A stretch of DNA of 64,000 bases, from assembly GCA_031429515.1 (NCBI GenBank), contig JANOZT010000013.1:121-64120 (forward strand). Direction: 5' to 3'. The DNA comes from Sphingobacteriia bacterium (GTDB taxonomy: Bacteria > Bacteroidota > Bacteroidia > Chitinophagales > Chitinophagaceae). The position numbers were made by a program, and so were the translations under genes. Below the pieces are notes generated by a model. The model searched no databases. It worked only from the letters and a program-made list of their open reading frames with translations, and was not told where the DNA came from. Positions 12,086 through 54,498 of this stretch are shown here, piece after piece (within the stretch, counting starts at the first letter, position 1; the number at the start of each line of letters is the position of its first letter).

Positions 12086-14278
12086 TTATCTTAGGAACAA
12101 CATCTCTCTGTATTTTGGCAAAGTCCATGTTTCGTCGTCCACCAATTGTTCTAATTTATCTACATGGTAACGGATTTCGTCGAAGAAAGCAGATTTAACT
12201 TGACTTTCATAAGCAATGGCTTTTGTGCGAGTGTTTTCGATATTGTTCACAATTTTTCTTGCTTCAACCATACCATGAACTTTGGTATGAATTACTTGAA
12301 TATGCTCACTTACTTCTTTTAGAATGGATAATTGACTTGCATATGAAGACTCAGGTAATCCAGCAGATTTTAACCCATTAACGTTGGTCAATAAATCATT
12401 CTGGTATTTAATTGCAGAAGGCAATATATGGTTGATAGCTAAATCGCCCATAATTCTTGCTTCAATTTGCACCTTCTTGATGTATTTCTCTAATTCAATT
12501 TCATGACGAGCTTCTAGTTCAGTATGAGAATACACATTATTGGTTTCAAATAAATGCTTTGCTTTATCTGTAACCATTGCATCTAAAGCAACTGGAGTAG
12601 TTTTTAAATTAGGTAAACCTCTGCGTTCTGCTTCATGATGCCACTCATCGCTGTAACCATCTCCTTCGAATAATACTTTTTTACTTTCTACAATGTATTT
12701 CTGAATTACATGCATAATAGCAATTTCTTTTTTATCACCTTTTTCAATCAATGTATCTACATCTAGTTTGAATTTTCTCAAAGTATCTGCAACAATCGTA
12801 TTTAATACGGTCATAGAGATGGCGCAGTTTGCTGAAGAACCTACTGCACGGAATTCAAATTTATTTCCAGTAAAAGCAAAAGGAGATGTTCTGTTACGAT
12901 CTGTATTGTCTAGCATCAATTCAGGAATACTACGATGTAAATCTAATTTTAAGATAGCTTCGTCTTGTTCATCAAATTTATGTCCCACTCTTGTTTCAAC
13001 ATCAGCTAATACCTTGGCTAAATATTGACCCACAAAAACTGAAATGATTGCAGGAGGAGCTTCATTGGCACCTAAACGATGATCGTTAGGAGCAGATGCA
13101 ATTGCTGCACGTAAAATATCGGCATAATCATGAACTGCTTTAATAGTGTTCACAAAGAAAGTAAGGAACATCAAATTGGTCTTTGGCGTTTTTCCTGGTG
13201 CTAATAAATTCACACCTGTATCAGTTGCCATACTCCAGTTATTATGCTTACCACTTCCATTAATACCAGCAAATGGTTTTTCATGTAATAATACAACGAG
13301 CTTATGTCTTTTAGCAACTCGACTCATAACATCCATCAAAAGGGTATTATGGTCTACAGCAATATTTACTTCTTCAAAAATCGGAGCACACTCAAATTGA
13401 GCAGGAGCAACTTCATTGTGGCGGGTTCTTAAAGGAATGCCTAATTTATATGCTTCGGCTTCGTAGTCGCGCATAAAAGCATACACTCTTTCAGGAATAG
13501 ATCCAAAATAATGATCTTCTAACTGTTGACCTTTCGCTGGAGCAGCACCAAATACGGTTCTTCCACTTTGCACTAAATCGGGGCGAGCGTTTGCCAAAGC
13601 TTCGTCAATTACAAAGTATTCTTGTTCCCAGCCCAAAGTAGCAGTTACTTTAGTAACATTCTTATCGAAATAATTGCATACTTCAACAGCAGATTTATTC
13701 AAAGACTCTAAAGCTTTTAATAAAGGAGCTTTGTAATCTAAAGATTCACCTGTATAAGAAACGAAAATAGTTGGAATACACAATGTTCTTCCATCACCCG
13801 TTTCAATGATAAAAGCAGGAGAAGAAGGATCCCATGCAGTATAACCACGAGCTTCGAAAGTAGCTCTTAATCCACCACTCGGAAATGAAGATGCATCAGG
13901 TTCTTGTTGAATTAATGCAGCACCGTCAAATTCTTCGATTGCAGTTCCATCACTTTTTAAAGTGAAAAACGAATCATGCTTTTCTGCTGTGGTTCCTGTT
14001 AACGGCTGAAACCAGTGTGTATAGTGAGTAACGCCTTTGCTCTCTGCCCATGCCCTAATACCATTGGCAATCTGACTTGCTACATTTCTATCAATTTTTT
14101 TCCCACCACGAATGCTGGTAGTTAAACTTTTATAAGCTTCATCACTTAAAAATTCACGTGCGGTTTTAAGCGTAAACACACTTTCTCCGAAAATTCCTGT
14201 AATTTTTGTACTAGGTTTTGAGGCAATCCCTTCATTTTCTTTGGAGATGTTGCTAATTGCATTAAATCTTAAAGACAT
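12086..14278 (-). CDS. glnN: Glutamine synthetase type III
   Basis: THWFQPLTG.TAEKHDSF, EPDASSFPSGGLR.TFEARGY, HEKPFAGINGSGKHNNWS, DRNRTSPFAFTGNKFEFRA; 730 aa. Confidence 0.95.
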   Translation of the reverse strand: MSLRFNAISNISKENEGIASKPSTKITGIFGESVFTLKTAREFLSDEAYKSLTTSIRGGKKIDRNVASQIANGIRAWAESKGVTHYTHWFQPLTGTTAEKHDSFFTLKSDGTAIEEFDGAALIQQEPDASSFPSGGLRATFEARGYTAWDPSSPAFIIETGDGRTLCIPTIFVSYTGESLDYKAPLLKALESLNKSAVEVCNYFDKNVTKVTATLGWEQEYFVIDEALANARPDLVQSGRTVFGAAPAKGQQLEDHYFGSIPERVYAFMRDYEAEAYKLGIPLRTRHNEVAPAQFECAPIFEEVNIAVDHNTLLMDVMSRVAKRHKLVVLLHEKPFAGINGSGKHNNWSMATDTGVNLLAPGKTPKTNLMFLTFFVNTIKAVHDYADILRAAIASAPNDHRLGANEAPPAIISVFVGQYLAKVLADVETRVGHKFDEQDEAILKLDLHRSIPELMLDNTDRNRTSPFAFTGNKFEFRAVGSSANCAISMTVLNTIVADTLRKFKLDVDTLIEKGDKKEIAIMHVIQKYIVESKKVLFEGDGYSDEWHHEAERRGLPNLKTTPVALDAMVTDKAKHLFETNNVYSHTELEARHEIELEKYIKKVQIEARIMGDLAINHILPSAIKYQNDLLTNVNGLKSAGLPESSYASQLSILKEVSEHIQVIHTKVHGMVEARKIVNNIENTRTKAIAYESQVKSAFFDEIRYHVDKLEQLVDDETWTLPKYREMLFLR

Positions 14279-14448
14279 AAGTTTTTCTGTTTTTTCTACT
14301 CCAAAATAAAGCTTTTTAAATTAAACCGTCAACTTCTGACGAGGGAAAATCGGTTTTTGGGCATAAAAAGGGTAAAATAAATACATATAATTTATTATAA
14401 TTTGATAGCAGTTTTGTTAGACCAATTTCATGAAACGTATGGACATTA

Positions 14449-14474
14449 AAAAAGCGCCCCAATTGGAGCGCTTT
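14449..14474 (-). terminator. Intrinsic terminator after the 1403-aa T9SS cargo gene
   Basis: On minus strand AAAGCGCTCCAATTGGGGCGCTTTTTT. Confidence 0.7.
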
Positions 14475-14494
14475 GTATGCTAATAGAGTTTGTA

Positions 14495-17400
14495 TTAATC
14501 TTTACCCATTACCAATCTGGTAGCTTTGTATTTTACATTGCTTCCATCAAGACTAATGATATACACTTTTTGACCTTTGTTGATGTTCACATTAACTGGT
14601 ACAGCGTTTTCTCCTTTTGTAGCATTTACTGATTGACTCATTATTACATTACCAGTTCCAGCTTCTGTAACTTTTAAAGTAAGCGAGTAATCTTTATCTG
14701 CTTTAAACTTAAGGTTAAATGTTCCTTTAGAAGGATTAGGATATGCAGTAATATCTTTTGCAGATAAACTTCTGATATAGCCTATATCTTCTTTTGTAAA
14801 TGAAACATTGCTTAATGAAACTTCAACATTGGTATTTTTTCCAGCTGAAGTAGCTCCTAATGCAACAATCAAGGTAGTGATGTCTTTAGGATCGATTGAT
14901 TTATTAGAACCAGCAGATTTAAAGTCGCTTAATGGGATCAAGAAATCTGTCGCATCTTTATTTACAGCGAACTGATAAGTGTATTGATCAGCCCAATTTG
15001 TAATTGATTGTTTTACCAATGTTACTGTTAAAACCGAATTTCCAGCTGCAGTGATTTTCAGTGTTTTGAATGCACTTAGATCCTGTGCTGCACCACCACC
15101 TCTAAGTAATTTATATACTCCAATAAAGTCGGGAGTAGTTGCACTTACATCTACATTTCTGAAAAGATGGAATTCATCTTTAACTAATTGTGCAGTGCTA
15201 TTCTTTACATCAAATTTCTTAACACTTGTTGTATTGGTATTATAATCAACACCCCAAGATCCATCAGCCATAAATACTTCATCTTGCACAACTCCATTCA
15301 TATATAATTTAATGGTTGATTCATACAAGTCTCCAGTTTGAAGAGATATAGTTGTTTTACCATTGGCATTTACTGTGAAAGGAACCGTTCTTTTTGTATA
15401 AACAGTAGTGTTTTCAGTTGCTCTATCTGCCACTTCAAAATAACCACTTGTTCCTGCAGTTAAGTTATTAATGGTCATGCTAAGATTGTCTTCTACACGT
15501 TTACCTTCAGTAATATAAGTTTTTGGTAAACCAGCATTGCTCTTGATTTCATTAACTGGTAATCCAGCAGTTAAACGAGTGATGATATCAGCAGCCATAT
15601 CTGTTGCAAGAACAGGAGAACCACCCCAAAGTTGAATATTGTACATTGTTTCATCAACAGTATAATCTTTATTCAACCAATTGGATTGTATGGTATAACT
15701 ATTTCTTCCAGATTTTGCACCTATGATAAAGCTCATTGCATATTCAATATTACCATCGTTGTTTCTTAAGTTATATTGAACCATATTGATACCTTTTACG
15801 GTAACGTTTTGCATTGCTACTAATTCATATCCTTTCAAACGATCACAAATTGCTTTGGTATGATCGTACACTTCACCTTGAGTTTGAGTGCCAAATGCAA
15901 CCGCTTTAGGAGTATTTTCATTAACGAAGTCAATCGATAATACATCTTTAGCGTTGGTAATTCCAATCAGGTCTTTAGGTGTAGAAACAAAAGATTTAAA
16001 ATTGTAATTGACCAATTGACGAGGAAGAATATCAGACAATTTCAACTGAGATCCAGTTGCATTACTAACGATATTTCCTTTTCTTTCAGCGGATGGCATT
16101 TTACTATAATCAGCTGTTGCTGGAGTACTGTTAATGGCTTTATTGTAAACCCGAAGCGCAATTGCATCGCCTAAGCTTTTACTTTCAACTCCACCGCCAC
16201 CGCCACCACCAACTGAACCTGCAGTTGCAAATCCAAAATCGTAGCTATGGTTATTGGCACCGGAAACACCTGTAGTCATCATTATTGCAGAACGTTTATC
16301 TGTGCCTGCTAAACTCCATGCACTTCCGTCATTGTCTCTTTCATCTGCATTAGGATCTACTCCACCATTATTAGTCAGTGTAATATCATATCCACTCAAT
16401 GGAGCTTGTAATGGTGGTGCTCCTCCATCAAGACCATATATAGAAATAGTAAAGTCTGTATTAGGAGTAAGTTGTGTTAAACCATATTTCTCCGAAGCTG
16501 TTGAAGGTCTAGTAACACTTGGGTCTGAAGAAAATATATAATTTCCGTTTGCATCCGTTACGGCTGAAGCAATTAATGTATAAGCCGAACCTGGTCCAAC
16601 ATATTTAAGTAATTCAACAGTTACTCCTGCTATTCCATTTTCATCCGCATCTTGCACACCATTAGCATTCGCATCAAACCAAACACGGTTTCCAATTTCA
16701 ATTGGAGCTGGTGCAGAAATAATTTCTAAATCTCCTAAACCATTGGCTTTACCAAAAAATTCTACACTTCCACCTTCGTATAAAACTTTACCTGCTTTAG
16801 CAATACCATCTTGAGTAGAATAATATCGAACACCACCAGTATACCAGTTGGTAATAGGGTCAAAAGCAGTTGCAACTAATTCTTTACCTGGAAACATTGC
16901 AATACTACCAGTGCTGGTTTCTTCATGAGAAACACCACCATTAGTACCGTTAGCTGTATTGCCAATTCCCAAAGCACCACCTTGACCATTTTCATAACGA
17001 TCTGTGAAGAAAAACTCTCCACCGCCAGGGCCTTCATTGTTGCCAGCACCATTGGTAGTTATACTTCCACTCGTGCCATTACTTTCTAAAGTGAAGCTGG
17101 TATATGTTCCATTATTTGCAGCTTTTAAAATATCTCCAGCAGCATTTGATGTATACAAAGTGTTATTACCCATGCTTGTTGGAGCTAAATTCTGATTTCC
17201 GGATTGATGCCCAGATCTATCAGTAATGCCCAACATCATTGCACCATCAGCAGGATCAAATTCCAAAGAACTCAACATAGGTTGAGGATAAATAATTTTA
17301 TCTGATCCTGGAGGAATAACTGCTTCTGTAAAATTTCTAGCCCATGGATGCCATGAACCTTGGCACAATGTTGCTGCAGCTATTGTTCCATTTGGATCAA

Positions 17401-18706
17401 CGTAGTTAGAATTTTTATTTACTCCAAAACCAGTATTCATATTGGCTCTACGCTGATAGGTTAGTGGTGCATCTAATACGGTTGTAAACGTTTCTGTTCC
17501 GGGTGTAACGGTTGCACTCACTTTTAACACTACTGCTTTCAACTCAGATCTATTCACTGAAGAATTATCTGGTTTTACACCATCTAATACACCGCCTACA
17601 TAAATAGCACCTCTATAAAACTTAACTGCAAATGGTCTGAATGTGCTGTTACCAGCAGCTACAGGAAATGCATTATAAGCTACAATTTGAGAAGCTAAGG
17701 TTGGAGCAGTTCCATTAGTACCAATATCGACTCTCCATAATTTTTTATCATTTAAGTTGATGATGTATAAATATCTTCCATCATCAGAAATAGCCATTCC
17801 TCCCATGCCTTTTTTGCCTACTTCATCAAATACATTGCCACCAGTCATATCATCTCTATTGGCTTGGTTTCTAGCCTGATTACCAGGAGCAAAAGATCTG
17901 CCAGGCAAAGAGCCTGCGTCAAATGCTGGATTGATCGCATTTAAGTTAACAAAATTTCCAGTGTTGGTTTTAGTTGTTATTGCTTTTGCTCCAGTAGTAA
18001 CATAAATTCCATTCATGCCAAGAGGTCCAAGCGATACATGTCTTTTTACAAAAGCAGCATAAAATAATTTATCTGCTTTTCTACTATAAGCTGTGGCCCA
18101 AACTGAACCAGTTTGTCCCATATCGCTAATCACATTGGCAGCTGCGCCACTTCCATAATTAAAAGCATAAGTATTATCTGCACCAGATGCTGCTGGCCAT
18201 GCACCAGGAACTTGGTTATTACCGTTAGTATAGGATGGTACAACAATTCTTGCAGTTGCAGATTCAATATAATCACCAGGATAATTGATAGCAAAATTTG
18301 ACGTAATAGAAGGAGCTGTTACAAACTGAACACTTGTTTTATTATTTGTACCGTATGCTCCGGGATAATCTTCAGACATCCATCCGGTAAATTCTAAGCG
18401 TACTTTAGTTGCTGCAGAAATTTGACCTGAAGTAAAACTATAGTTGCCATTTGCACCAGATGTTGTAGTTGCTAATAAAGTGCCAGATGCATTATATGCA
18501 TTTACTGTAACTCCAGCAGCACCAGGTTCGTTGTAGCCAACGCCTGTTTCTTTAGTACCAGAAGCATTATAATCTCTAAAAACATTTCCACTGACTTGCG
18601 CGGAAAGTTCTGAAGAGCTAAAGGCAAAAACACATAAGGCAATAGCAATGCCTAATGATTTTTTTGCATTAATAATAATTGAGTAAATTTTTTTCATATA
18701 GTACAT
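14495..18706 (-). CDS. T9SS cargo: SdrD B-like domains + propeller-like region + shared C-terminal module + type A CTD
   Basis: Signal peptide ending AQ; [20 protein letters not shown] and [29 protein letters not shown] (SdrD_B-like); C-terminal AYPNPSKG...GEN CTD. Confidence 0.85.
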
Positions 18707-18874
18707 TTATGATTGAACCCTTGTATAAAATAGTACGGAACGTGTTTTTTTAACAATATTGTGTAAGTGAAAAAACAATTCTTGTAGTATATACTCTACA
18801 CACAACGTAAAAGTAACGAAATTTCTCGAAAAATACACTGTTTGCATATGCTAAAATCCTTACTGAGCAAGACG

Positions 18875-18894
18875 TATACCAACTAGTTTGTATA
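18875..18894. promoter_or_regulatory. 20-bp palindrome TATACCAACTAGTTTGTATA, candidate response-regulator operator
   Basis: 9 of 10 pairs complementary; close copy at 26249-26264. Confidence 0.6.
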
Positions 18895-18985
18895 TTTAGG
18901 TGTTAAATTTTAACCGATTTCAATTTTTTTAAAAGTTTTTTTTGAATATTTAATTTAAATTTACTTGCTGTACATTATAAAACAA

Positions 18986-19978
18986 ATGAATACACATTTT
19001 AATAAAAACAAATATGTCAAAGCGTCGAGTTTTCGATCATATGTAAATTTATTTACAAGTATCAATATTATTTTTCTGTGTTTTTTCATAATTCCCAACA
19101 ACTTGGTAGCACAATCTGCCATTAAGCCCTGCCAAAAGGAGCCAGATTTCATAAAATCTTTGGGATTTGATCCTTTGTGGACAGCATTAAGCACCAGTGA
19201 AAAAAAGCTCACTGGAATTGCTTTGATTGAATTTGAACAGATGGAAGGTCAAAAATCGCCTTCTCCAACAAATCCCAAAAAAACGGTGTATCAAGCTCCT
19301 TCATGGAAATCATTCGGCTATCTTTCCTCGATTGCTTTTGATATTAATGGCAATGCGTATACCATACCAACTCCTTTGATTTCCATGTTGTATAATCCTA
19401 TTGAAAAATTGAATACGATTTATCGATTGGATCAATACACCGGAGTATTGAATGAATGGTTGAATCTTCCGATTAATTCAAAAACAACCACTCGTAATCC
19501 TTTTGGATTATTGGGTATCACTTATGATTGTACTGCTAATATTTTGATTGCATCTACTGTAGCTGGCTCTGATCGATATCAAGAAAAAGGAATGATATTT
19601 TTGATCAATCCAAACACCCAAAAAATCATTGATACTTTAATGCATAAAGATGCAATAGGTCTCAATGTTGCTTTCGACGAAAATAAACAAAAACGATTGT
19701 ATATTGGAAGTGCAAGAAATGGAAATATCATTTCTATTCCAATCAATGCTCAAGGCCAATTAGTAAAGTCTAAATTGCGAAAAGAGCTTAGCTTGCAAGG
19801 GTTTGGGCCTAGAGGCGATGATAAAGCAAGAAAAATAAAAATGGTAGAGGGAGCGCTGATTATTAGTGGTGTTGCATTTAATTATAACTTACAAGCTTCT
19901 AGTGAAAAACCAGAAACAGTATACACTTTTAAGTGGAATACTTCTGCCAAAAACTGGGACTTGATTGACTATAAATAA
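18986..19978 (+). CDS. Secreted hypothetical protein, probable beta-propeller
   Basis: Hydrophobic leader ending LVAQ; repeated strand motifs (SIAFDINGNAYT, GITYDCTANILIAS, GLNVAFDEN..RLYIGS); start 18986 (ATG) or 18965 (TTG). Confidence 0.65.
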   Translation: MNTHFNKNKYVKASSFRSYVNLFTSINIIFLCFFIIPNNLVAQSAIKPCQKEPDFIKSLGFDPLWTALSTSEKKLTGIALIEFEQMEGQKSPSPTNPKKTVYQAPSWKSFGYLSSIAFDINGNAYTIPTPLISMLYNPIEKLNTIYRLDQYTGVLNEWLNLPINSKTTTRNPFGLLGITYDCTANILIASTVAGSDRYQEKGMIFLINPNTQKIIDTLMHKDAIGLNVAFDENKQKRLYIGSARNGNIISIPINAQGQLVKSKLRKELSLQGFGPRGDDKARKIKMVEGALIISGVAFNYNLQASSEKPETVYTFKWNTSAKNWDLIDYK

Positions 19979-19982
19979 GGCT

Positions 19983-21041
19983 ATGAAAAAGCAATGGAGC
20001 ATATTATTTTTTTTGGTGCTAATTATTTTTTCTTCCCTCTTTATTGACCAATTATTTTCTACTCCTATTCATTCTTCCAGTAATTCAAAAATCATTTTAG
20101 GCAGGTATTTATTCTTTGATAATCAATTGTCTTACAATCAAACAAAGTCTTGTGCTTCTTGTCATGATCCACAATTTGCATTTTCAGATGGGTATAGAAA
20201 ATCAGTTGGAGCAGATGGAGAAAATCTTACAAGAAATGCCCCTTCACTTTTAAATACTAAATACTTAAAAGCACTCACATGGGGGGATAGTTCTATTCAT
20301 GAATTTTATCAACAAATGAATTTTCCATTATTTAATGAACACCCAAAAGAATTGGGATGGACCAATAATGAATCGGAAATAATCAACCGTTTTAAATTAG
20401 ACCCTTTTTACCAAACCCTTTTCAGTAACGCATTTCCAAAGGAAAAAAATCCTTTTTCAACATTTTTTTTCCAAGAAGCCATTGCAGCTTTTGAAAATCA
20501 ATTACAATCTCAGAATAGTCCATATGATCAATATGTAAAAGGCAATAAAGATGCGATGAATGAAAAAGCAATCAATGGGTTAGCATTATTTAATTCCGCA
20601 AGTTTGGGATGTTTTAAATGCCATTCCTTGAATGTATCTCAACAACAATTATTGTATGCTAATACTGGTTTGTATAATCTAGATGAAGTTGGATCATACC
20701 CATCTTCAGACCAAGGGCTATATGAAATAACTAAAAACACCAACGACAAAGGCAAGTTTCGTGTGCCCTCATTGAGGAATATAATGCTAACAGCACCCTA
20801 CACACATGATGGTTCTGTTGAAACAATCCAACAAATGATTTATATTTATAAAAGAGGAGGTCGCTTAATTGAAGCGAAAGAAAACAAAGGGGATGGTCAT
20901 AACAATAAAAATAAATCTAGTTTAATAAAAGGCTTTACTTTATCAGATAAAGAGCAAACAGAATTAATTGAATTTCTTGCAGCTTTAACCGATACTAGCT
21001 ACTTAAGAAATAAGCAATTAATGAATCCTTTCAATAAATAA
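19983..21041 (+). CDS. Di-heme cytochrome c peroxidase-family enzyme, MbnH/MauG-like
   Basis: LGRYLFFD..LS, CASCH (20151-20165), CFKCH (20610-20624), NTGLYNLD..G.YP, GKFRVPSLRN..LTAPYTHDGS, GGR.I...GDG..N..KS..I.GF.L; N-terminal signal/anchor. Confidence 0.9.
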   Translation: MKKQWSILFFLVLIIFSSLFIDQLFSTPIHSSSNSKIILGRYLFFDNQLSYNQTKSCASCHDPQFAFSDGYRKSVGADGENLTRNAPSLLNTKYLKALTWGDSSIHEFYQQMNFPLFNEHPKELGWTNNESEIINRFKLDPFYQTLFSNAFPKEKNPFSTFFFQEAIAAFENQLQSQNSPYDQYVKGNKDAMNEKAINGLALFNSASLGCFKCHSLNVSQQQLLYANTGLYNLDEVGSYPSSDQGLYEITKNTNDKGKFRVPSLRNIMLTAPYTHDGSVETIQQMIYIYKRGGRLIEAKENKGDGHNNKNKSSLIKGFTLSDKEQTELIEFLAALTDTSYLRNKQLMNPFNK

Positions 21042-21043
21042 TA

Positions 21044-22831
21044 ATGATTGTACAAATAAAAAATTATTGGATAATAGTGCTTTTGTTAATGAGTTCAATC
21101 ATTGTATCTGCTCAACAAAAAAAATCTCTCCTAAAATCTACCAAAGCCAATGATGCGCTTTATTTGAGTGAGTTTAAAGAATCAGTTTTTGCAACAAAAA
21201 AAATAGACACCACTGCTTTTATTGTTGAACGAAAAAAACAAATCGACTCCATATTACATGATGAAATACCCGTGAAATACTATTCCGATAAAACCGATGA
21301 AAGAACTATGTTGGCGCAAAATATTGCTTTGCAAGACTCTTTTTTTATCAAATATATCTTTGATAAAAAAACGCATCAACCATTGTGGAATGAAATATTT
21401 GGTGTATATCCTGCAAGACCAGGGGATATTAGAAAAGGTGTTGTGAATTTGCCAGGTTCATTAATGCGTATTGAAATGTATAATTATGCGTTGAATTTAA
21501 CTACTATAGGTGTAGTCAATATCATAACACATAAAATGATCAGTGTAGATCACTATCCTCAAATGCAACCAGATATTCCTTCAAGGCTTACTAAATTGGC
21601 GGTAAAAATTGCGGTCAATTCACCTGAAGTGGAGAAAGCACTCGGATTTAAACCTTCTGCTGATTTGCCCATCATGTCGAGTACCAAAACAGCATTGAAT
21701 AGAACAAAATGCGAAAGGTCTCAGCATTTATGTGTTGCACCAACTTTTGTAAAAGGCAATAGAGCTTTATGGGCCATTGTGGACCTTACAGATAATCGAT
21801 TGGTAGGATTACGTTGGACCAATGTTGGGAAAGATGCTGAAAATTTAGTAGTTACAGAAAGAAAATTACAGAATGAAAATATGGCCGATTGTTATTGCGA
21901 AAAAATCAACACGGTTAAAAAAAATAACTGGGCAGTTGATTATGTTTTAACAGCCTCCGATGGACTCATGATTAGTAATGTAAGTTTCAATTCAAACAAA
22001 ATAATCAATAGTGCAAAATTGGTAGATTGGCATGTAAGTTACTCTGGTACTGATGGTTTCGGTTACAGTGATGCTGTAGGTTGCCCAATCTTTAGCCAAT
22101 CGGCTGTAGTGGCAACAGATCCGCCTATTATAGCAGACATAATTGAAGGGGATAGTACAGTTGGTTTTATGCTCGAACAGCGATTCTTCAGCGAATTATG
22201 GCCTATTGCTTGTAATTATAGTTATTCCCAGCGTTTTTTCTTTTACAAAAATGGTCAATTCAGAATGGTTTGTGCAAGTTTAGGAAGGGGTTGTGGAAAT
22301 AATGGAATTTACCGACCTGTGATGCGTATTTCATTTGCAGGTAATAAACAATCGTTTTATGAGTGGGGTAATAATGCTTGGAATATTTGGGACAAAGAAA
22401 AATGGCAATTACAACAACCAACAACATCTTATTCACCCAAGGGATTTCAGTATCAACTCCAAACGAGCAACAACAATGGGTTTTATATAGAGCCAGGCAA
22501 GGGTCAATTTAATGACAGTGGAAGAGGAGATAATGCCTACTTATACATTACTAAAAACCATTTAGATAAAAATGAAGGAGAAACCGATTTGGTAACAATT
22601 GGACCATGTTGCAATATCGATTACCGACAAGGCCCCGAAAAGTTCATTGAACCAAATCCAGAGCAAATTGTTAACACTGACTTAGTGCTCTGGTATGTTC
22701 CTCAAATGAAGAATGACGATACTCCAGGATCCAAATATTGTTGGGCTGAAACCTATTATGAGGGTGGTGTATATAAAATTAAATCTTACCCTTGTTTTGC
22801 AGGACCAATGTTTGTTCCTTTCAAAAAATGA
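21044..22831 (+). CDS. Secreted copper amine oxidase-fold protein lacking the canonical Cu-binding histidines
   Basis: Ordered CAO-like blocks: AIVDLTDNRLV, NWAVDY...GLMISNVSF...WHVSY..GYSD, CNYSYSQRFFFYKNGQF, YLYITKN, EQIVNTDLVLWY; recognised by eye against remembered E. coli TynA sequence. Confidence 0.75.
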   Translation: MIVQIKNYWIIVLLLMSSIIVSAQQKKSLLKSTKANDALYLSEFKESVFATKKIDTTAFIVERKKQIDSILHDEIPVKYYSDKTDERTMLAQNIALQDSFFIKYIFDKKTHQPLWNEIFGVYPARPGDIRKGVVNLPGSLMRIEMYNYALNLTTIGVVNIITHKMISVDHYPQMQPDIPSRLTKLAVKIAVNSPEVEKALGFKPSADLPIMSSTKTALNRTKCERSQHLCVAPTFVKGNRALWAIVDLTDNRLVGLRWTNVGKDAENLVVTERKLQNENMADCYCEKINTVKKNNWAVDYVLTASDGLMISNVSFNSNKIINSAKLVDWHVSYSGTDGFGYSDAVGCPIFSQSAVVATDPPIIADIIEGDSTVGFMLEQRFFSELWPIACNYSYSQRFFFYKNGQFRMVCASLGRGCGNNGIYRPVMRISFAGNKQSFYEWGNNAWNIWDKEKWQLQQPTTSYSPKGFQYQLQTSNNNGFYIEPGKGQFNDSGRGDNAYLYITKNHLDKNEGETDLVTIGPCCNIDYRQGPEKFIEPNPEQIVNTDLVLWYVPQMKNDDTPGSKYCWAETYYEGGVYKIKSYPCFAGPMFVPFKK

Positions 22832-22850
22832 CGTATATTGAATTTTATTT

Positions 22851-23489
22851 ATGAGCGAAAAAATTAACTTAATGATTGCCGATGACCATCCACTTTTTGT
22901 GGAAGGTCTAAAGATGATATTGGGGAGTGATCCAGCAATCAATATTGCAGGTATTGCAAATGACGGCAAGCAGTTGCTGTACTTACTCACTCAGCAACCA
23001 GATATTGATTTAATTTTATTGGATGTGAATATGCCTAACCTAAATGGCTTAGATACAATCAAATACATCAAACAATCTTTCGTTACTGTTAGGGTTTTAA
23101 TGCTTTCTGCATACAATGACGCAAAATTAATTGAGCAAGCAAAAAAAGCTGGCGCAGATGGATACATATTAAAGAACAGTAGCAAAGACGAACTATCGGG
23201 TGCCATTAAAAAAGTTGCCGGAGGTGAGTCTGTTTTCATTTTGGGAAAAGAAGAGAACTTGCCAGATGCTTTCAAAAAATTAGATACCTTTTTACACAAA
23301 TTCAATCTCACTAAGAGGGAATTAGAAATTGTTTATTACCTAAAGCAAACTTACACCAATCAGCAAATAGCAGAAAAATTGCATTTGAGTATTTATACGG
23401 TTGAAACACATCGTAAAAATATCATGCATAAATTACAATTAAATTCCCCAGCGGCTTTGGTTAAATTCATGATTGAATTTAACGTATAA
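22851..23489 (+). CDS. NarL/FixJ (LuxR-type HTH) two-component response regulator
   Basis: IADDH, LLDVNMP, MLS, GYILK receiver motifs; LTKRELEI...TNQQIAEKLHLSIYTVETHRKNIMHKL HTH. Confidence 0.95.
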   Translation: MSEKINLMIADDHPLFVEGLKMILGSDPAINIAGIANDGKQLLYLLTQQPDIDLILLDVNMPNLNGLDTIKYIKQSFVTVRVLMLSAYNDAKLIEQAKKAGADGYILKNSSKDELSGAIKKVAGGESVFILGKEENLPDAFKKLDTFLHKFNLTKRELEIVYYLKQTYTNQQIAEKLHLSIYTVETHRKNIMHKLQLNSPAALVKFMIEFNV

Positions 23490-23536
23490 AAAAAGCCCCC
23501 ATTGCTGGAAGCTATTTCTATTGAAGTCCTAAAAAT

Positions 23537-26029
23537 TTATTGTTGTATCAATATTTTCTGTGGTTGAAGTTTGATGCCATTTCCCTCAATGGTTAGTATG
23601 CTAATAGATATACCAGGTAAATTGGTCATCTGAACTGGAACCTGATTTTCTCCTTTCACTACATTGGCGTCTCTGGTAAATAATACTCTTCCGCTTGATG
23701 CATCAGTAATCTTAATAGTGGCAGTAGTATTTACTTCACTATTAAATTTCGCTGTGAATTTTCCTCCCTTTGCAGGATTAGGAAATACATTGATAAATGT
23801 ATTTGTAGCTGCAGCAACTTCATATGGCGCTTTTTTAGAAAAAGCAATATTGTTGATGGCCGCATCAATTGTTGTTGATCTTCCATCAAAAGTTTCGAAA
23901 GCAAATACAACAGTAACTATATCATTGGCTTCAAATCCGGCTGTTGAATTCGTTGCTTTGAAACTACTCAAATCTATTCTGTATTCTTTAAATTCTTTTC
24001 CAATAGTAGTGCTGTATTTAAATTGTTTTTCAAAATCGTTGATGGAATTTTTTGCCAAAGTAATTTTTAGTTTTGCATCTCCTTTAGCGGTTAATACCAA
24101 TGTTTTATATTCACTCAGATCTACTGCAACACCTGCTCCTTTTAATACTTTGTAAGCGGTAATATAATTAGGAGTTGTTGCCTTTATTTTTACATTTCTG
24201 AATACAGGATAGTCTCCTGCAGCAATTCCTTTTGAAGTATCGTTCAATATGCTAAACTCCTTTAATACAGTTTTGGAAGAGTCATAATCAATTCCCCAAG
24301 TGCCATCACTCATATAAACTTGATCCTGTAATTTGCCATTGATATACATAGATACATTGCTCTCAAAAACATCACTCATTGGGAAAGTAACGGTTGATTT
24401 GTTGAATGCATTTAAATTAAATGGAATAGTTCTTTTTGTTTTTATTGTTGCCATTTCGTTGGCTTTCTCTTCCACTTCAAAATATCCACTACTAAAGATG
24501 CTTTGATTATTGATGGATAAATTTAAATTGGTTCCATTACGACTTCCGCTTGTGAAATAAGTTTTAGGTAGTTCTGCGGAAGCAATAAATTGCTGAATAG
24601 GCATTATAGCATTCAATTTGCTCAAAATTTCTAAAGCCATATCTATGCATAAATACGGAGCTGCACCCCAAACCTGGTAGTTGATTAATGTGTCTTCACT
24701 GATATAATCTTTATTCAACCAATTAGATTGAAAAGAGAAACTATTCCTTCCTATTTTTTTACCTACTGAAAAGCTCATTGCATATTCAATATTTCCAGTA
24801 GACTGTTGTAAAGTGTACCTGATAAAATTTAAACTGTTTAAAGAAAAATTCTCCACATTCAATAATTCAGCACCTTTCAATCGATCACACATAGGTTTTG
24901 TATGATCATACATTACACCTTGTGTTTTTGTTGCAAAAGCTACTGCTTTGCAAATTCCATCTTTTGTAAAGTCTACAGATCTTACTTCTTTTGCGTTTGT
25001 AATAAAAGGAATATCTGTAGGTGTAGTTATATAAGCTGTGTATCCAGAATCTAATATGCGTGAAGGCATTAAGTCGGCCAATCTCAAGCCAGTATTAGAA
25101 GAAGTTGCATTGCTAGTGATCATTCTAGACTCAGGTTGGAGTAATTGCATTTGTTGATAATTCACTTCACCGTTACTTCCTTCTAGTAATTTTCCATAAA
25201 TTCTTTTAGCAATTTTATCTCCTAAGCTTTTGCTTTCTAATCCACCCGTATTTCCTGAAAATGAAATTTTTCCATCTATTGTTAAATCAGGAATACTATC
25301 CATTTTGTTGACGCATTCGATCGGTGTAACTGTTGTAAAAAATATCAAATCATTGAAGTCGTTATCACAGCCATTGTTATCTCTTCTAATATCTTCAAAA
25401 CCAATAACAATTCTATTGGAACTAGAATCTCTGAGTAAAACAGTATGTCTTTTATTTGAAACAATAGGTTCAGGATTAAAAGCTGCGGTAGAATACAATG
25501 TCCAGTTTCCAGGAGTTACAATAGTTCCATTCCATCCGTCAGCCATCAATACAAATCCAATACCTGTTTTTGCAGGAAAATTGCCTAAGAATACTTTATC
25601 ACCTGCATTTAATGCACCACCTGCACCATTTTTAGATGCATTGGGAAAAATTATTTTGATTTGATTTGCTGCAGGAGTAGAAGTAGGTGGATTGTCTGTA
25701 TTGAAAGTATAATAACCTAGGGCATTTCTATAACCAGCGCCTTCATCAACAAAAGTAATCCAAATATCTGAAGCACATTTAACATCAATGGTTTCGGTTC
25801 TTCCATCTGCAATTAAACGAGGGTTATAGGTTGGAACTGGTCTGTTCTCTGGCAAAGAAGCGGCAATCTTACTTAGGAATGATGCACTAAGCACATCTCT
25901 AGTTGGCAATAAATAATTTGGTTTCCCTTGATTATCATAAGTGCCTAAATATTGGTATTGGCCAATTGATTTTGTGGAAACTAGAATAAGTATGGTCAGT
26001 CCTAGATAATGCGTAAATTTCTTAAGCAT
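23537..26029 (-). CDS. T9SS cargo: DUF4114-like N-terminal domain + shared C-terminal module + type A CTD
   Basis: Signal peptide ending IGQ; TFVDEGAGYRNALGYY and GFEDIRRD...DNDFNDLIF; C-terminal NVFPNPAKG...GEN CTD; C-terminal ~570 aa colinear with 14495-18706 product. Confidence 0.85.
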   Translation of the reverse strand: MLKKFTHYLGLTILILVSTKSIGQYQYLGTYDNQGKPNYLLPTRDVLSASFLSKIAASLPENRPVPTYNPRLIADGRTETIDVKCASDIWITFVDEGAGYRNALGYYTFNTDNPPTSTPAANQIKIIFPNASKNGAGGALNAGDKVFLGNFPAKTGIGFVLMADGWNGTIVTPGNWTLYSTAAFNPEPIVSNKRHTVLLRDSSSNRIVIGFEDIRRDNNGCDNDFNDLIFFTTVTPIECVNKMDSIPDLTIDGKISFSGNTGGLESKSLGDKIAKRIYGKLLEGSNGEVNYQQMQLLQPESRMITSNATSSNTGLRLADLMPSRILDSGYTAYITTPTDIPFITNAKEVRSVDFTKDGICKAVAFATKTQGVMYDHTKPMCDRLKGAELLNVENFSLNSLNFIRYTLQQSTGNIEYAMSFSVGKKIGRNSFSFQSNWLNKDYISEDTLINYQVWGAAPYLCIDMALEILSKLNAIMPIQQFIASAELPKTYFTSGSRNGTNLNLSINNQSIFSSGYFEVEEKANEMATIKTKRTIPFNLNAFNKSTVTFPMSDVFESNVSMYINGKLQDQVYMSDGTWGIDYDSSKTVLKEFSILNDTSKGIAAGDYPVFRNVKIKATTPNYITAYKVLKGAGVAVDLSEYKTLVLTAKGDAKLKITLAKNSINDFEKQFKYSTTIGKEFKEYRIDLSSFKATNSTAGFEANDIVTVVFAFETFDGRSTTIDAAINNIAFSKKAPYEVAAATNTFINVFPNPAKGGKFTAKFNSEVNTTATIKITDASSGRVLFTRDANVVKGENQVPVQMTNLPGISISILTIEGNGIKLQPQKILIQQ

Positions 26030-26248
26030 ATTGTCCTATTTAGTAAACGGTTAATAATTGTTCACTATAGGGCAGGATTAAAGGAATTGGATGGTTCTAG
26101 TTTAAAATTATCTCAAATCCTATTTGCTAACGAAATTTCAACCTTGTTTGGTATATATTTCATCAAGAAATTTGAACTTTTTTATTTCATAAATAGTTCA
26201 TTTACAGTAATTTAAGATAAAATGACCTGCTAAGATCAATTATTAAAA

Positions 26249-26264
26249 TACCAACTGGTTGGTA
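26249..26264. promoter_or_regulatory. 7-2-7 palindrome TACCAAC-TG-GTTGGTA, candidate operator
   Basis: Perfect 7-bp arms; matches core of 18877-18892 at 14/16. Confidence 0.6.
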
Positions 26265-26390
26265 GAGTCAATTAAGCTGTTTTGTAGATTTTCATTAAAA
26301 AAATACCTATTACTGGTTATTATTTAACTTTTATAGAAGAGGAAAACTTCATATGGTCTGTTTAAGGTACTTTCTTAACTTCGCCGCAAT

Positions 26391-28595
26391 ATGGAAATTA
26401 CTGTAAAAACCGCTCAACAGCTCCGCCTTACTGCTGAAGAATTTGAGCTGATCCAACAAAAATTAAATAGAACACCCAATTTCACTGAGTTATGTGCTTT
26501 TAGCGGCATGTGGAGTGAACATTGTAGTTATAAAAACTCCATTAAATGGTTAAAAACATTGCCAAGAAATGGCGGTAGAATGTTGGTAGCTGCAGGAGAA
26601 GAAAATGCAGGTTTAATGGATATTGGAAATGGTTTTGGTGTAGTGTTTAAAATAGAAAGCCATAATCATCCTAGTGCAATAGAACCATTTCAAGGTGCTG
26701 CAACTGGTGTTGGCGGAATTCAAAGAGATATATTCACCATGGGAGCAAGGCCTATTGCTTCAATGAATAGTTTGCGCTTTGGAAATCTAAAAGATAAAAA
26801 AACGCAACACTTATTATCAGGTGTTGTAAAGGGTATTGGGCATTATGGAAATTGTTTTGGTGTTCCAACAGTTGGAGGTGAAGTTTATTTTGAAGATTGT
26901 TACCATACCAATCCTTTAGTGAATGCAATGAGTGTTGGGATAATGAAAGCTGGTGATATGGTAAGTGCAACAGCAAAAGGCACTGGCAATCCTGTAATTT
27001 ATGTTGGAAGTGCAACCGGAAAAGATGGAATTGGTGGAGCTAGTTTTGCGAGTGCAGATATTACTCATGATAGTGTTCAAGAATTGCCTGCAGTTCAAGT
27101 GGGCGATCCTTTTCAAGAGAAGAAATTATTAGAAGCTTGTTTAGAAGTATTAACAACAGGAGCTGTTGTAGGTATGCAGGATATGGGTGCGGCAGGAATT
27201 ATTTGCAGTACAGCAGAGATGAGTGCAAAAGGCGAAGTAGGAATGCATATCGATTTAGAGAAAGTACCTACTCGACAACAAAACATGAAAGCTTGGGAAT
27301 TACTTTTAAGTGAAAGTCAGGAAAGAATGTTGATGGTTGTAGAAAAAGGAAGAGAAGCAGAAGTAGTTGCTGTTTTTGAAAAATGGGATTTAAGTGCAAG
27401 CACAATTGGTCATGTTACCGACGACGGTTTGTTGAAATTTTACATGAATGGAGAACTAGAAGCATCATTACCTGCATACGAATTGGTATTAGGTGGAGGT
27501 GCTCCTCAATACACTAGAGAATACACGGAGCCTGCTTATTTCGAAAAAATCAATGCATTCAATATTGCAGATATAGAAGACATTGCTGATATAAAAGAAG
27601 TTGCTGAATCATTAGTGTCATTGCCCAATATCGCCAGTAAACGATGGATATATACGCAATATGATAGTATGGTTGGTGCTGCAAATTTGAGTACCAATAA
27701 TCCTAGCGATGCTTCTATTGTTTTAGCAAAAGGAACTGGTAAAGCCTTGGCAATGACCGTAGATTGCAATAGCAAATATGTTTATGCAAATCCTTATATC
27801 GGTGGAATGATTGCTGTTGCAGAAGCAGCAAGAAATATTGTTTGTAGTGGTGCTGAGCCAATCGGTGTGACCAATTGTTTGAATTTTGGAAACCCGTATG
27901 ACCCCGAAGTTTATTTTCAATTTGTACATGCCGTTACTGGTATGGGCGATGCTTGTAAAAAATTCAATACACCAGTAACTGGTGGTAATGTGAGTTTCTA
28001 TAATCAAAACCCTGATGGTCCGGTATATCCAACACCAACAATTGGAATGGTGGGTATCTTGGAAGATATCGAAGCAAAAATGACCTTGCATTTTAAAAAT
28101 GCAGGTGATACGATTGTATTAATTGGTCAGCAACACAATGATATTGCATCAAGTGAATATTTACATAAACTAAAGAAAGTTCAATATTCACCAGCGCCCT
28201 ATTTTAATTTGGATGAAGAATACAATATACAACAGTTTGTGTATGAGCTCATTCAAAAAAAGAAAATCAACAGCGCTCATGATATTAGCGAAGGGGGATT
28301 GATGATTACTTTATTTGAGAGTGGATTTGCTGGTAATAAGGGATTCAATGTAGATCCTTCAATAGAAATGAGAAAAGACGCTTATTGGTTTGGAGAAGCT
28401 CAAGGAAGAATTGTTGTTTCAGTTAATACCAATGCGTTGGACACTTTATTGAATGATGCAAAAGCTGCTGGAATTGCATGTTCAATAGTAGGAACAGTAA
28501 CAGAAAGTGATATTGAAGTGAGTGGAGAAAATTGGGGAGATATCAATGGTTGGAAAGAGAAATATGATACTGCTATAGAAAAGATGATTCAATAA
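26391..28595 (+). CDS. purL: Phosphoribosylformylglycinamidine synthase subunit PurL
   Basis: MWSEHCSYK, KIESHNHPSAIEPFQGAATGVGGIQRD, QDMGAAG, TGGNVSFYN. Confidence 0.97.
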   Translation: MEITVKTAQQLRLTAEEFELIQQKLNRTPNFTELCAFSGMWSEHCSYKNSIKWLKTLPRNGGRMLVAAGEENAGLMDIGNGFGVVFKIESHNHPSAIEPFQGAATGVGGIQRDIFTMGARPIASMNSLRFGNLKDKKTQHLLSGVVKGIGHYGNCFGVPTVGGEVYFEDCYHTNPLVNAMSVGIMKAGDMVSATAKGTGNPVIYVGSATGKDGIGGASFASADITHDSVQELPAVQVGDPFQEKKLLEACLEVLTTGAVVGMQDMGAAGIICSTAEMSAKGEVGMHIDLEKVPTRQQNMKAWELLLSESQERMLMVVEKGREAEVVAVFEKWDLSASTIGHVTDDGLLKFYMNGELEASLPAYELVLGGGAPQYTREYTEPAYFEKINAFNIADIEDIADIKEVAESLVSLPNIASKRWIYTQYDSMVGAANLSTNNPSDASIVLAKGTGKALAMTVDCNSKYVYANPYIGGMIAVAEAARNIVCSGAEPIGVTNCLNFGNPYDPEVYFQFVHAVTGMGDACKKFNTPVTGGNVSFYNQNPDGPVYPTPTIGMVGILEDIEAKMTLHFKNAGDTIVLIGQQHNDIASSEYLHKLKKVQYSPAPYFNLDEEYNIQQFVYELIQKKKINSAHDISEGGLMITLFESGFAGNKGFNVDPSIEMRKDAYWFGEAQGRIVVSVNTNALDTLLNDAKAAGIACSIVGTVTESDIEVSGENWGDINGWKEKYDTAIEKMIQ

Positions 28596-54369: not shown

Positions 54370-54498
54370 TTGTTTACTACTGGTACTTCCTCTTCCCAAC
54401 TTGTTGGGAAAACAACGGAAAAGGTCGGTAGCAAACAAGGATTGAATTCCGATTTCATCATCGGAATGTCCTCACAACCATGCGGGGCATAAACCGCA
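54370..54498 (+). ncRNA. Candidate structured cis-regulatory RNA upstream of rplC
   Basis: Nested and serial stems 54370-80/54428-38, 54393-400/54403-10, 54446-53/54460-67, 54481-85/54494-98. Confidence 0.4.

Follow-up and report, generated by a model that had tools for sequence, protein, structure and literature searches.

The 64-kb stretch of DNA analysed here (the window) belongs to a Sediminibacterium genome of 3.3 Mb and 35% GC (the home genome G000; other genomes and fetched loci are cited below by G and L numbers, and contigs by C numbers). Within it lies a gene island in which a NarL/LuxR-type response regulator is accompanied by two copies of a 7-2-7 palindrome, here called site 1 and site 2. 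Window genes were taken from an open reading frame (ORF) listing and from Pfam and NCBIfam scans, and are listed with the other features in Table 1. The island, a block made up of the 1403-aa gene, an operon that ends with the regulator, and the 830-aa gene, is an insertion of about 11.7 kb in the divergent spacer between the gene for glutamine synthetase type III (GSIII) and purL (window 14279-26390). Eight genomes of the same genus are without the island genes, and in them GSIII and purL adjoin each other directly in divergent orientation. Neither an integrase nor a tRNA was seen at the island junctions. The 1403-aa gene is transcribed divergently from site 1 and the 830-aa gene from site 2; their products have the C-terminal ~570 aa in common at about 40% identity (tblastn; window 14495-16200 versus 23537-25250) and are two paralogous cargo proteins of the type IX secretion system (T9SS) with different N-terminal modules. 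Apart from the regulator, Pfam and NCBIfam scans found no DNA-binding protein among the six genes of the island.

Table 1. Features of the island and its borders, in window coordinates
Feature	Position	Strand	Description or basis
Glutamine synthetase type III (GSIII)	12086-14278	-	Left neighbour of the island
1403-aa secreted protein	14495-18706	-	SdrD_B repeats (Pfam); match to T9SS C-terminal sorting domain weak, sub-threshold
Site 1	18877-18892	.	7-2-7 palindrome TACCAAC-TA-GTTTGTA
p337	18986-19978	+	Secreted, faint propeller likeness (ORF); 18986 is the probable operon ATG
MbnH-family di-haem enzyme	19965-21041	+	TIGR04039, 368.9 bits (cut-off 362.85)
p595 (595 aa)	21044-22831	+	Faint copper-amine-oxidase likeness, E ~3e-4
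NarL/LuxR-type response regulator (212 aa)	22851-23489	+	Last operon gene, 20 nt past the p595 stop
830-aa secreted protein	23537-26029	-	DUF4114, weak T9SS tail (Pfam and NCBIfam)
Isolated half-site	26146-26154	.	GTTTGGTAT
Site 2	26249-26264	.	Perfect 7-2-7 inverted repeat TACCAAC-TG-GTTGGTA
purL -7 box	26376-26383	+	TAACTTCG; Bacteroidota type TAnnTTTG, ~120 nt downstream of site 2
purL	from 26391	+	Right neighbour of the island

Site 1 (TACCAACTAGTTTGTA) lies inside the divergent promoter spacer between the 1403-aa gene and the p337 operon; the distance from its centre is about 101 nt to the operon ATG and about 178 nt to that of the 1403-aa gene. Its arms differ by one mismatch, the extended form ATAC...GTAT runs from 18876 to 18893, and TATACCAACTAGTTTGTATA is read at 18875-18894, spanning the site. 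Site 2 (TACCAACTGGTTGGTA) is located between the 830-aa gene and purL, with its centre about 227 nt from the ATG of the former and about 134 nt from that of the latter. Re-reading of the sequence bore out the coordinates and counts that a preliminary description of this DNA had given for the two palindromes: the 16-nt cores are identical at 14 of 16 positions, and 126 nt separate the end of site 2 from the purL ATG.

Matches to this palindrome are far more frequent than base composition would provide. When up to two mismatches are allowed, TACCAACNNGTTGGTA is matched four times in the window against 0.19 expected, and none of 100 shuffles reached four. The whole home genome holds three perfect copies of the palindrome versus about 0.01 expected from base composition, and five copies of the degenerate form TACMAASNNSTTKGTA versus a mean of 0.59 for 840 palindromes with permuted half-sites. 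Two of these five copies fall in the 11.7-kb island (P for at least two of five, 1.3e-4). Chance is ruled out as the source of the two sites by the window shuffles, the genome counts of permuted palindromes and these clustering statistics. A window match at 19093-19108 (TCCCAACAACTTGGTA, two mismatches), considered as a third site, is treated as chance because it lies in the part of p337 that encodes the signal peptide and is conserved as coding sequence. A further window match with two mismatches is found at 54394.

The gene order of the island is repeated in G018, L027, L150, L028 and L151, where the regulator is 99%, 81%, 78%, 77% and 75% identical to that of the window, respectively. Site 1 is kept in all six island copies, in a weaker form in L150 (ATACCCACCGATTTGTAT), and when the divergent spacer, otherwise barely alignable, is compared across four species, no other block is as clearly conserved. 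Site 2 is identical at 16 of 16 positions in G018, where the bases directly upstream differ, and a counterpart exists wherever the 830-aa gene abuts purL (G018, L027, L150, L151 and G007). Degenerate versions of site 2 are present in G003 and G010, in which the cargo gene is partial or decayed. G007 retains the regulator, the 830-aa gene and the purL-side palindrome; its operon has decayed (L025:1741-3008), leaving p595 remnants in two pieces, and p337, the MbnH gene and the 1403-aa gene are absent.

No palindrome is present in the 500 bp upstream of purL in the 12 genomes of the same genus that are without the island, where the best matches have at least four mismatches, which is the level of chance. 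One of these 12, G017, carries an orthologue of the regulator elsewhere in its genome. Because the palindrome is missing upstream of purL in the island-less genomes, site 2 came with the island, and a conserved purL element is rejected as its source. Conservation of the motif upstream of purL in genomes without the locus would have counted against the proposal in the preliminary description, and none of the 12 shows it.

The association that most directly connects the palindrome with the regulator is seen among the relatives of this protein. In a FastTree phylogeny of 192 NarL-type regulators, drawn from the home genome and every locus retrieved for comparison, the regulators of the window and of G017 fall into one clade of 11 members (support 0.98; 48-100% identity). 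At least one site with no more than two mismatches lies within 5 kb of the gene for 10 of the 11 clade members, versus 5 of the 181 regulators outside the clade (Fisher p = 2e-12), and sites occur at a density of 19 per 95 kb in the clade versus 5 per 1392 kb outside it. The eleventh member is that of G007, on a contig that ends early, and its site is found on a separate contig beside purL. Members of the clade are found in the island (G000, G018, L027, L028, L150 and L151), in a cluster of 7TMR-DISM/HisKA_3 kinase, regulator, PDZ and DUF6498 genes (G017, L154 and L152), and divergent from a pair of genes for proteins of 595 and 244 aa (L029 and L215). The regulator gene and the palindrome are the sole features common to these three unrelated contexts. 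At L153, the regulator is accompanied by a convergent TPR-type kinase gene, again with a palindrome in the promoter region.

Regulators outside the island contexts are only 48-53% identical to that of the window, and in G017, L152, L153, L215 and L029 the start codon of the regulator gene or of its kinase gene follows the centre of the site by about 20-70 nt. The complete 3.7-Mb genome of G017 holds TACMAASNNSTTKGTA three times, with all three copies within 4.6 kb around the kinase-regulator pair, a clustering whose probability by chance is about 2e-8. Because related regulators elsewhere almost always adjoin the same palindrome, the palindromes are very probably the sites of this regulator.

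The regulator has the domains that such a role would call upon. A receiver domain (Pfam Response_reg PF00072, 3.8e-26) with a complete signature in alignment (DD11-12, D58 in LLDVNMP, S86 and K108) is joined to a C-terminal GerE/LuxR helix-turn-helix (HTH) output domain (Pfam GerE PF00196, 2.3e-15), and the segment TNQQ[I/M]A..L.LS[I/V]YTVETHRKNIM.K is near-invariant across the clade. The nearest solved structures are NarL (1a04, 4e-29, full-length) and VraR (7ve6 and 4gvp, ~1e-28). With 130.6 bits against the NarL equivalog model NF007935, the protein stays below the cut-off of 250 bits, and it is thus not a NarL orthologue. Neither the island nor the rest of the 64-kb window encodes a cognate HisKA_3 kinase, so the signal must come from elsewhere. 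All kinases returned by a tblastn search of the home genome with the G017 kinase are paired, except for an unpaired HisKA_3 core on contig C29, which is a candidate for the partner of the island regulator. The island regulator is therefore an orphan, which does not exclude it from the NarL/FixJ family; an adjacent kinase is present beside the orthologues in G017, L154 and L152.

On the strength of these sequence comparisons, we consider it probable that the NarL/LuxR-family response regulator of the island itself uses both palindromes as its operators. If it works as NarL and VraR do, a kinase encoded elsewhere would phosphorylate Asp58 and so free the C-terminal HTH domain, and the predicted binding, thus dependent on phosphorylation, would be that of a dimer with one monomer on each heptamer. 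Site 1 would then control the p337-MbnH-p595-regulator operon and probably also the divergent 1403-aa cargo gene, and autoregulation is to be expected because the regulator gene is part of the operon that this operator precedes. The 830-aa cargo gene, purL or both would be under site 2; in L028, where the island is not beside purL, site 2 is missing. With regard to the sign of regulation, we lean towards an activator, since no canonical Bacteroidota -7 box (TAnnTT[T/C]G) was found for the island genes in G000 or G018.

The preliminary description had proposed that the local regulator recognises both palindromes, and this proposal is supported by the clade association, by the clustering in G017, by the lack of another DNA-binding protein in the island and by the comparison of purL upstream regions. 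It had also proposed that all three transcription units are co-regulated through the two sites. For site 1 this agrees with its retention in every island copy, whereas L028, the single copy in which the 830-aa gene is away from purL, does not have site 2, so that the part of the proposal concerning the 830-aa gene stands less firmly.

The form of the motif is likewise consistent with recognition by a protein dimer. Seventeen sites yield the consensus a-ATAC[C/A]AAC-YR-GTT[G/T]GTAT-t, in which the flanking A and T, although outside the search pattern, are kept in 29 of 34 half-sites, and heptamer positions 4 and 7 take most of the mismatches. There is no covariation between positions 4 and 13, and 11 of the 17 sites combine a C-type half with an A-type half. 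This lack of coupling fits independent contacts between protein and half-site, not a hairpin.

Several observations weigh against the assignment of the palindromes to this regulator. The motif statistics partly reuse sites that were picked by pattern match; the L028 island copy is without site 2; the assemblies of G010 and G003 contain no orthologue of the regulator and yet keep a few matching sites, perhaps as relics or because another factor acts on them; and the recognition-helix core TVETHRKN is frequent in Bacteroidota paralogues that have no palindrome nearby, so that it does not discriminate orthologues. Some of these points, together with the high-scoring sites of the home genome far from the island (C51:23571 and C72:39408), would also be accounted for if the palindromes were operators of a different dimeric factor encoded elsewhere, of the TetR, Crp or another HTH family, and their closeness to the regulator were incidental. 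We regard this as improbable. The island, G017 and L029 contexts encode no such factor, and the regulator is the only gene that they share; the association with the clade is specific, and all three G017 sites flank the regulator. A global factor, moreover, would be expected to leave sites in the 12 other genomes of the genus, where perfect sites are absent. As for the caution in the preliminary description that TetR proteins bind similar palindromes, no TetR_N or other HTH domain besides that of the regulator was detected in the island, G017 and L029 neighbourhoods, which speaks against a TetR-family operator.

A purine-pathway control element of purL, resembling site 1 by coincidence, is a still less probable identity for site 2. 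Every island copy that abuts purL has the site and L028 does not; in G003, G010, L150 and L151, moreover, the purL -7 box follows the site after only about 55 nt, and the region upstream of purL in island-less genomes contains an element with a GTTGGTA half-site (see below). Set against this are the 12 island-less genomes, including G017, that have no palindrome at this position, and the extended motif of site 2, which is the same as that of site 1 and of the sites at the kinase-regulator loci. This possibility is also compatible with the regulator acting on purL, and is partly a sub-case of the regulator assignment. There is least reason to suppose that the palindromes are nucleic-acid structures (terminator or attenuator hairpins, cruciforms or repeats at the island ends) or chance occurrences, which we consider very unlikely. 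One site of G017 (site b) and the C91:6179 copy of G000 do lie inside longer inverted repeats with T/A runs, and site 2 is near the right-hand island junction. However, on neither strand does either site fold as RNA any better than shuffled sequences (z = +0.9, +1.3, 0.0 and -0.7), no terminator prediction covers either site, and Rfam has no match in 18000-27000. Both sites also lie between divergent genes, where no transcript ends. On these results, with the uncoupled arms described above, we reject an intrinsic terminator or structured RNA; inverted repeats at the island ends are rejected because the left junction has no matching copy, and chance is excluded by the statistics given above.

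The -7 box of the purL core promoter is kept in 18 of 18 aligned sequences of the genus. Upstream of about -40, island-bearing genomes have GGAAAACTTCAT and island-less genomes have ATGTTGGTAA[A/T]TC. The latter element is found in 11 of 12 aligned island-less genomes (loci L113-L122), the exception being G017. It includes a single GTTGGTA half-site without forming a palindrome, and may represent an ancestral control element of purL that the island displaced. One could go further and suppose that the island replaced the ancestral upstream part of the purL promoter and put its own operator there, such that the de novo purine synthesis operon purL-rfaD-proC is now under an orphan regulator by which the MbnH module and both T9SS cargo genes are driven as well, and whose reach may extend to GYF/nuo genes, to porV and to a cargo gene on contig C2 of G018. 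This broader scenario is doubtful in our judgement.

The comparison that comes to mind first is NarL itself. Once phosphorylation releases it, the output domain of NarL binds 7-2-7 sites as a dimer, and an engineered high-affinity site, TACCCCTAAAGGGGTA, consists of inverted heptamers with a 2-bp gap and the outer bases TACC...GGTA (PMC4549865). The island regulator resembles E. coli NarL and NarP in its combination of a receiver with a GerE/LuxR HTH domain, and its predicted operators resemble theirs in the 7-2-7 geometry and in the outer TACC/GGTA; dimeric binding after phosphorylation is assumed by analogy. The inner part of the heptamer differs, being CAAC here and CCCT or YYMT for NarL. 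The heptamer consensus of E. coli NarL and NarP is TACYYMT-N2-AKRRGTA, and TACCAAC fits it at five of seven positions, failing at positions 5 and 7. Furthermore, the island has no adjacent NarX/NarQ-type kinase or nitrate-respiration genes, and its host belongs to the Chitinophagales, with promoters of the Bacteroidota type. The feature held in common with NarL is thus the 7-2-7 geometry, not membership of a NarL regulon.

VraR, an equally close structural relative, and LiaR offer a second parallel, because their operators also stand upstream of the regulator's own operon. In the VraSR and LiaFSR systems, however, the kinase is encoded in the same operon, whereas the island copy is an orphan and only the more distant orthologues of G017 and L152 keep a kinase, of the 7TMR-DISM sensor type. 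The predicted targets differ as well, being T9SS cargo and an MbnH-type redox module instead of cell-wall stress genes.

With the MbnH/MbnP "metallo-mystery pair" loci the island shares the second gene of its operon, which passes the MbnH-family model TIGR04039. Unlike these loci it appears to have no MbnP partner, as none was detected in Pfam and NCBIfam scans of the window proteins. The MbnH-family enzyme and p595 (19965-22831) possibly form a protein-derived-cofactor system. Our literature search found nothing that links loci with MbnH and MbnP to response regulators, and we know of no description of a NarL-type regulator with a palindromic operator at such a locus.

What is new here is the operator motif and the clade to which it belongs, in an otherwise well-known regulator family; an autoregulated NarL-type 7-2-7 switch is a textbook mechanism. 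To our knowledge, almost no transcription-factor sites have been defined in Chitinophagales, and ATAC[C/A]AAC-N2-GTT[G/T]GTAT is a concrete and testable operator motif for an uncharacterised NarL-family clade of this order. It also makes it probable that the MbnH/p595 redox operon and both T9SS cargo genes are regulated as one unit, which supports the view that the island is a single functional system. The regulator could serve as a handle for switching the island on in order to learn its function. More generally, the arrangement illustrates that an inserted island can carry a predicted regulator-binding site to a housekeeping promoter such as that of purL.

Other sites suggest where else the regulator could act, and all of those described in this paragraph are candidate targets only. 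The best-scoring motif copy of the home genome (ATACCAACTAGTTGGTAT, C51:23571-23586) directly follows an S41 peptidase gene, and about 80 bp downstream of it is a small ORF with a GYF domain, after which come nuoA-nuoB-nuoC-nuoD; the site is conserved in G018, where the downstream genes differ. Another copy (TACAAATTGGTTGGTA, C72:39408-39423, two mismatches) is followed after 5 nt by the ATG of an unannotated ORF and has flanks (ttaaaa...gag) that nearly match those around site 2. In G018, a perfect palindrome at C2:13184 (L010:5185-5200) separates a Wza-like exporter operon from the gene for a 1077-aa protein with a T9SS tail. A perfect palindrome about 165 bp upstream of porV in G010 (C76:3315; L012), which has no regulator, is paralleled in the home genome by a copy with one mismatch about 260 bp upstream of the porV orthologue (C20:3301), inside the preceding ORF. 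Together, these last three sites hint at a T9SS theme.

Two smaller features of the motif deserve mention. The isolated half-site listed in Table 1 is found 100 bp from site 2 on the side of the 830-aa gene, and a half-site of this type recurs at a similar spacing in G018 (100 bp) and L027 (97 bp). It might be an auxiliary heptamer, a suggestion that is weak given that half-sites occur about 0.9 times per kb genome-wide. Some copies of the full motif form part of longer inverted repeats flanked by A/T runs, as at L026:10253-10288 (G017) and C91:6171-6202 of the home genome. These repeats, of which CCATTCAAAA-TACCAACCAGTTTGTA-TTTTGAATGG is an example, may double as bidirectional terminators.

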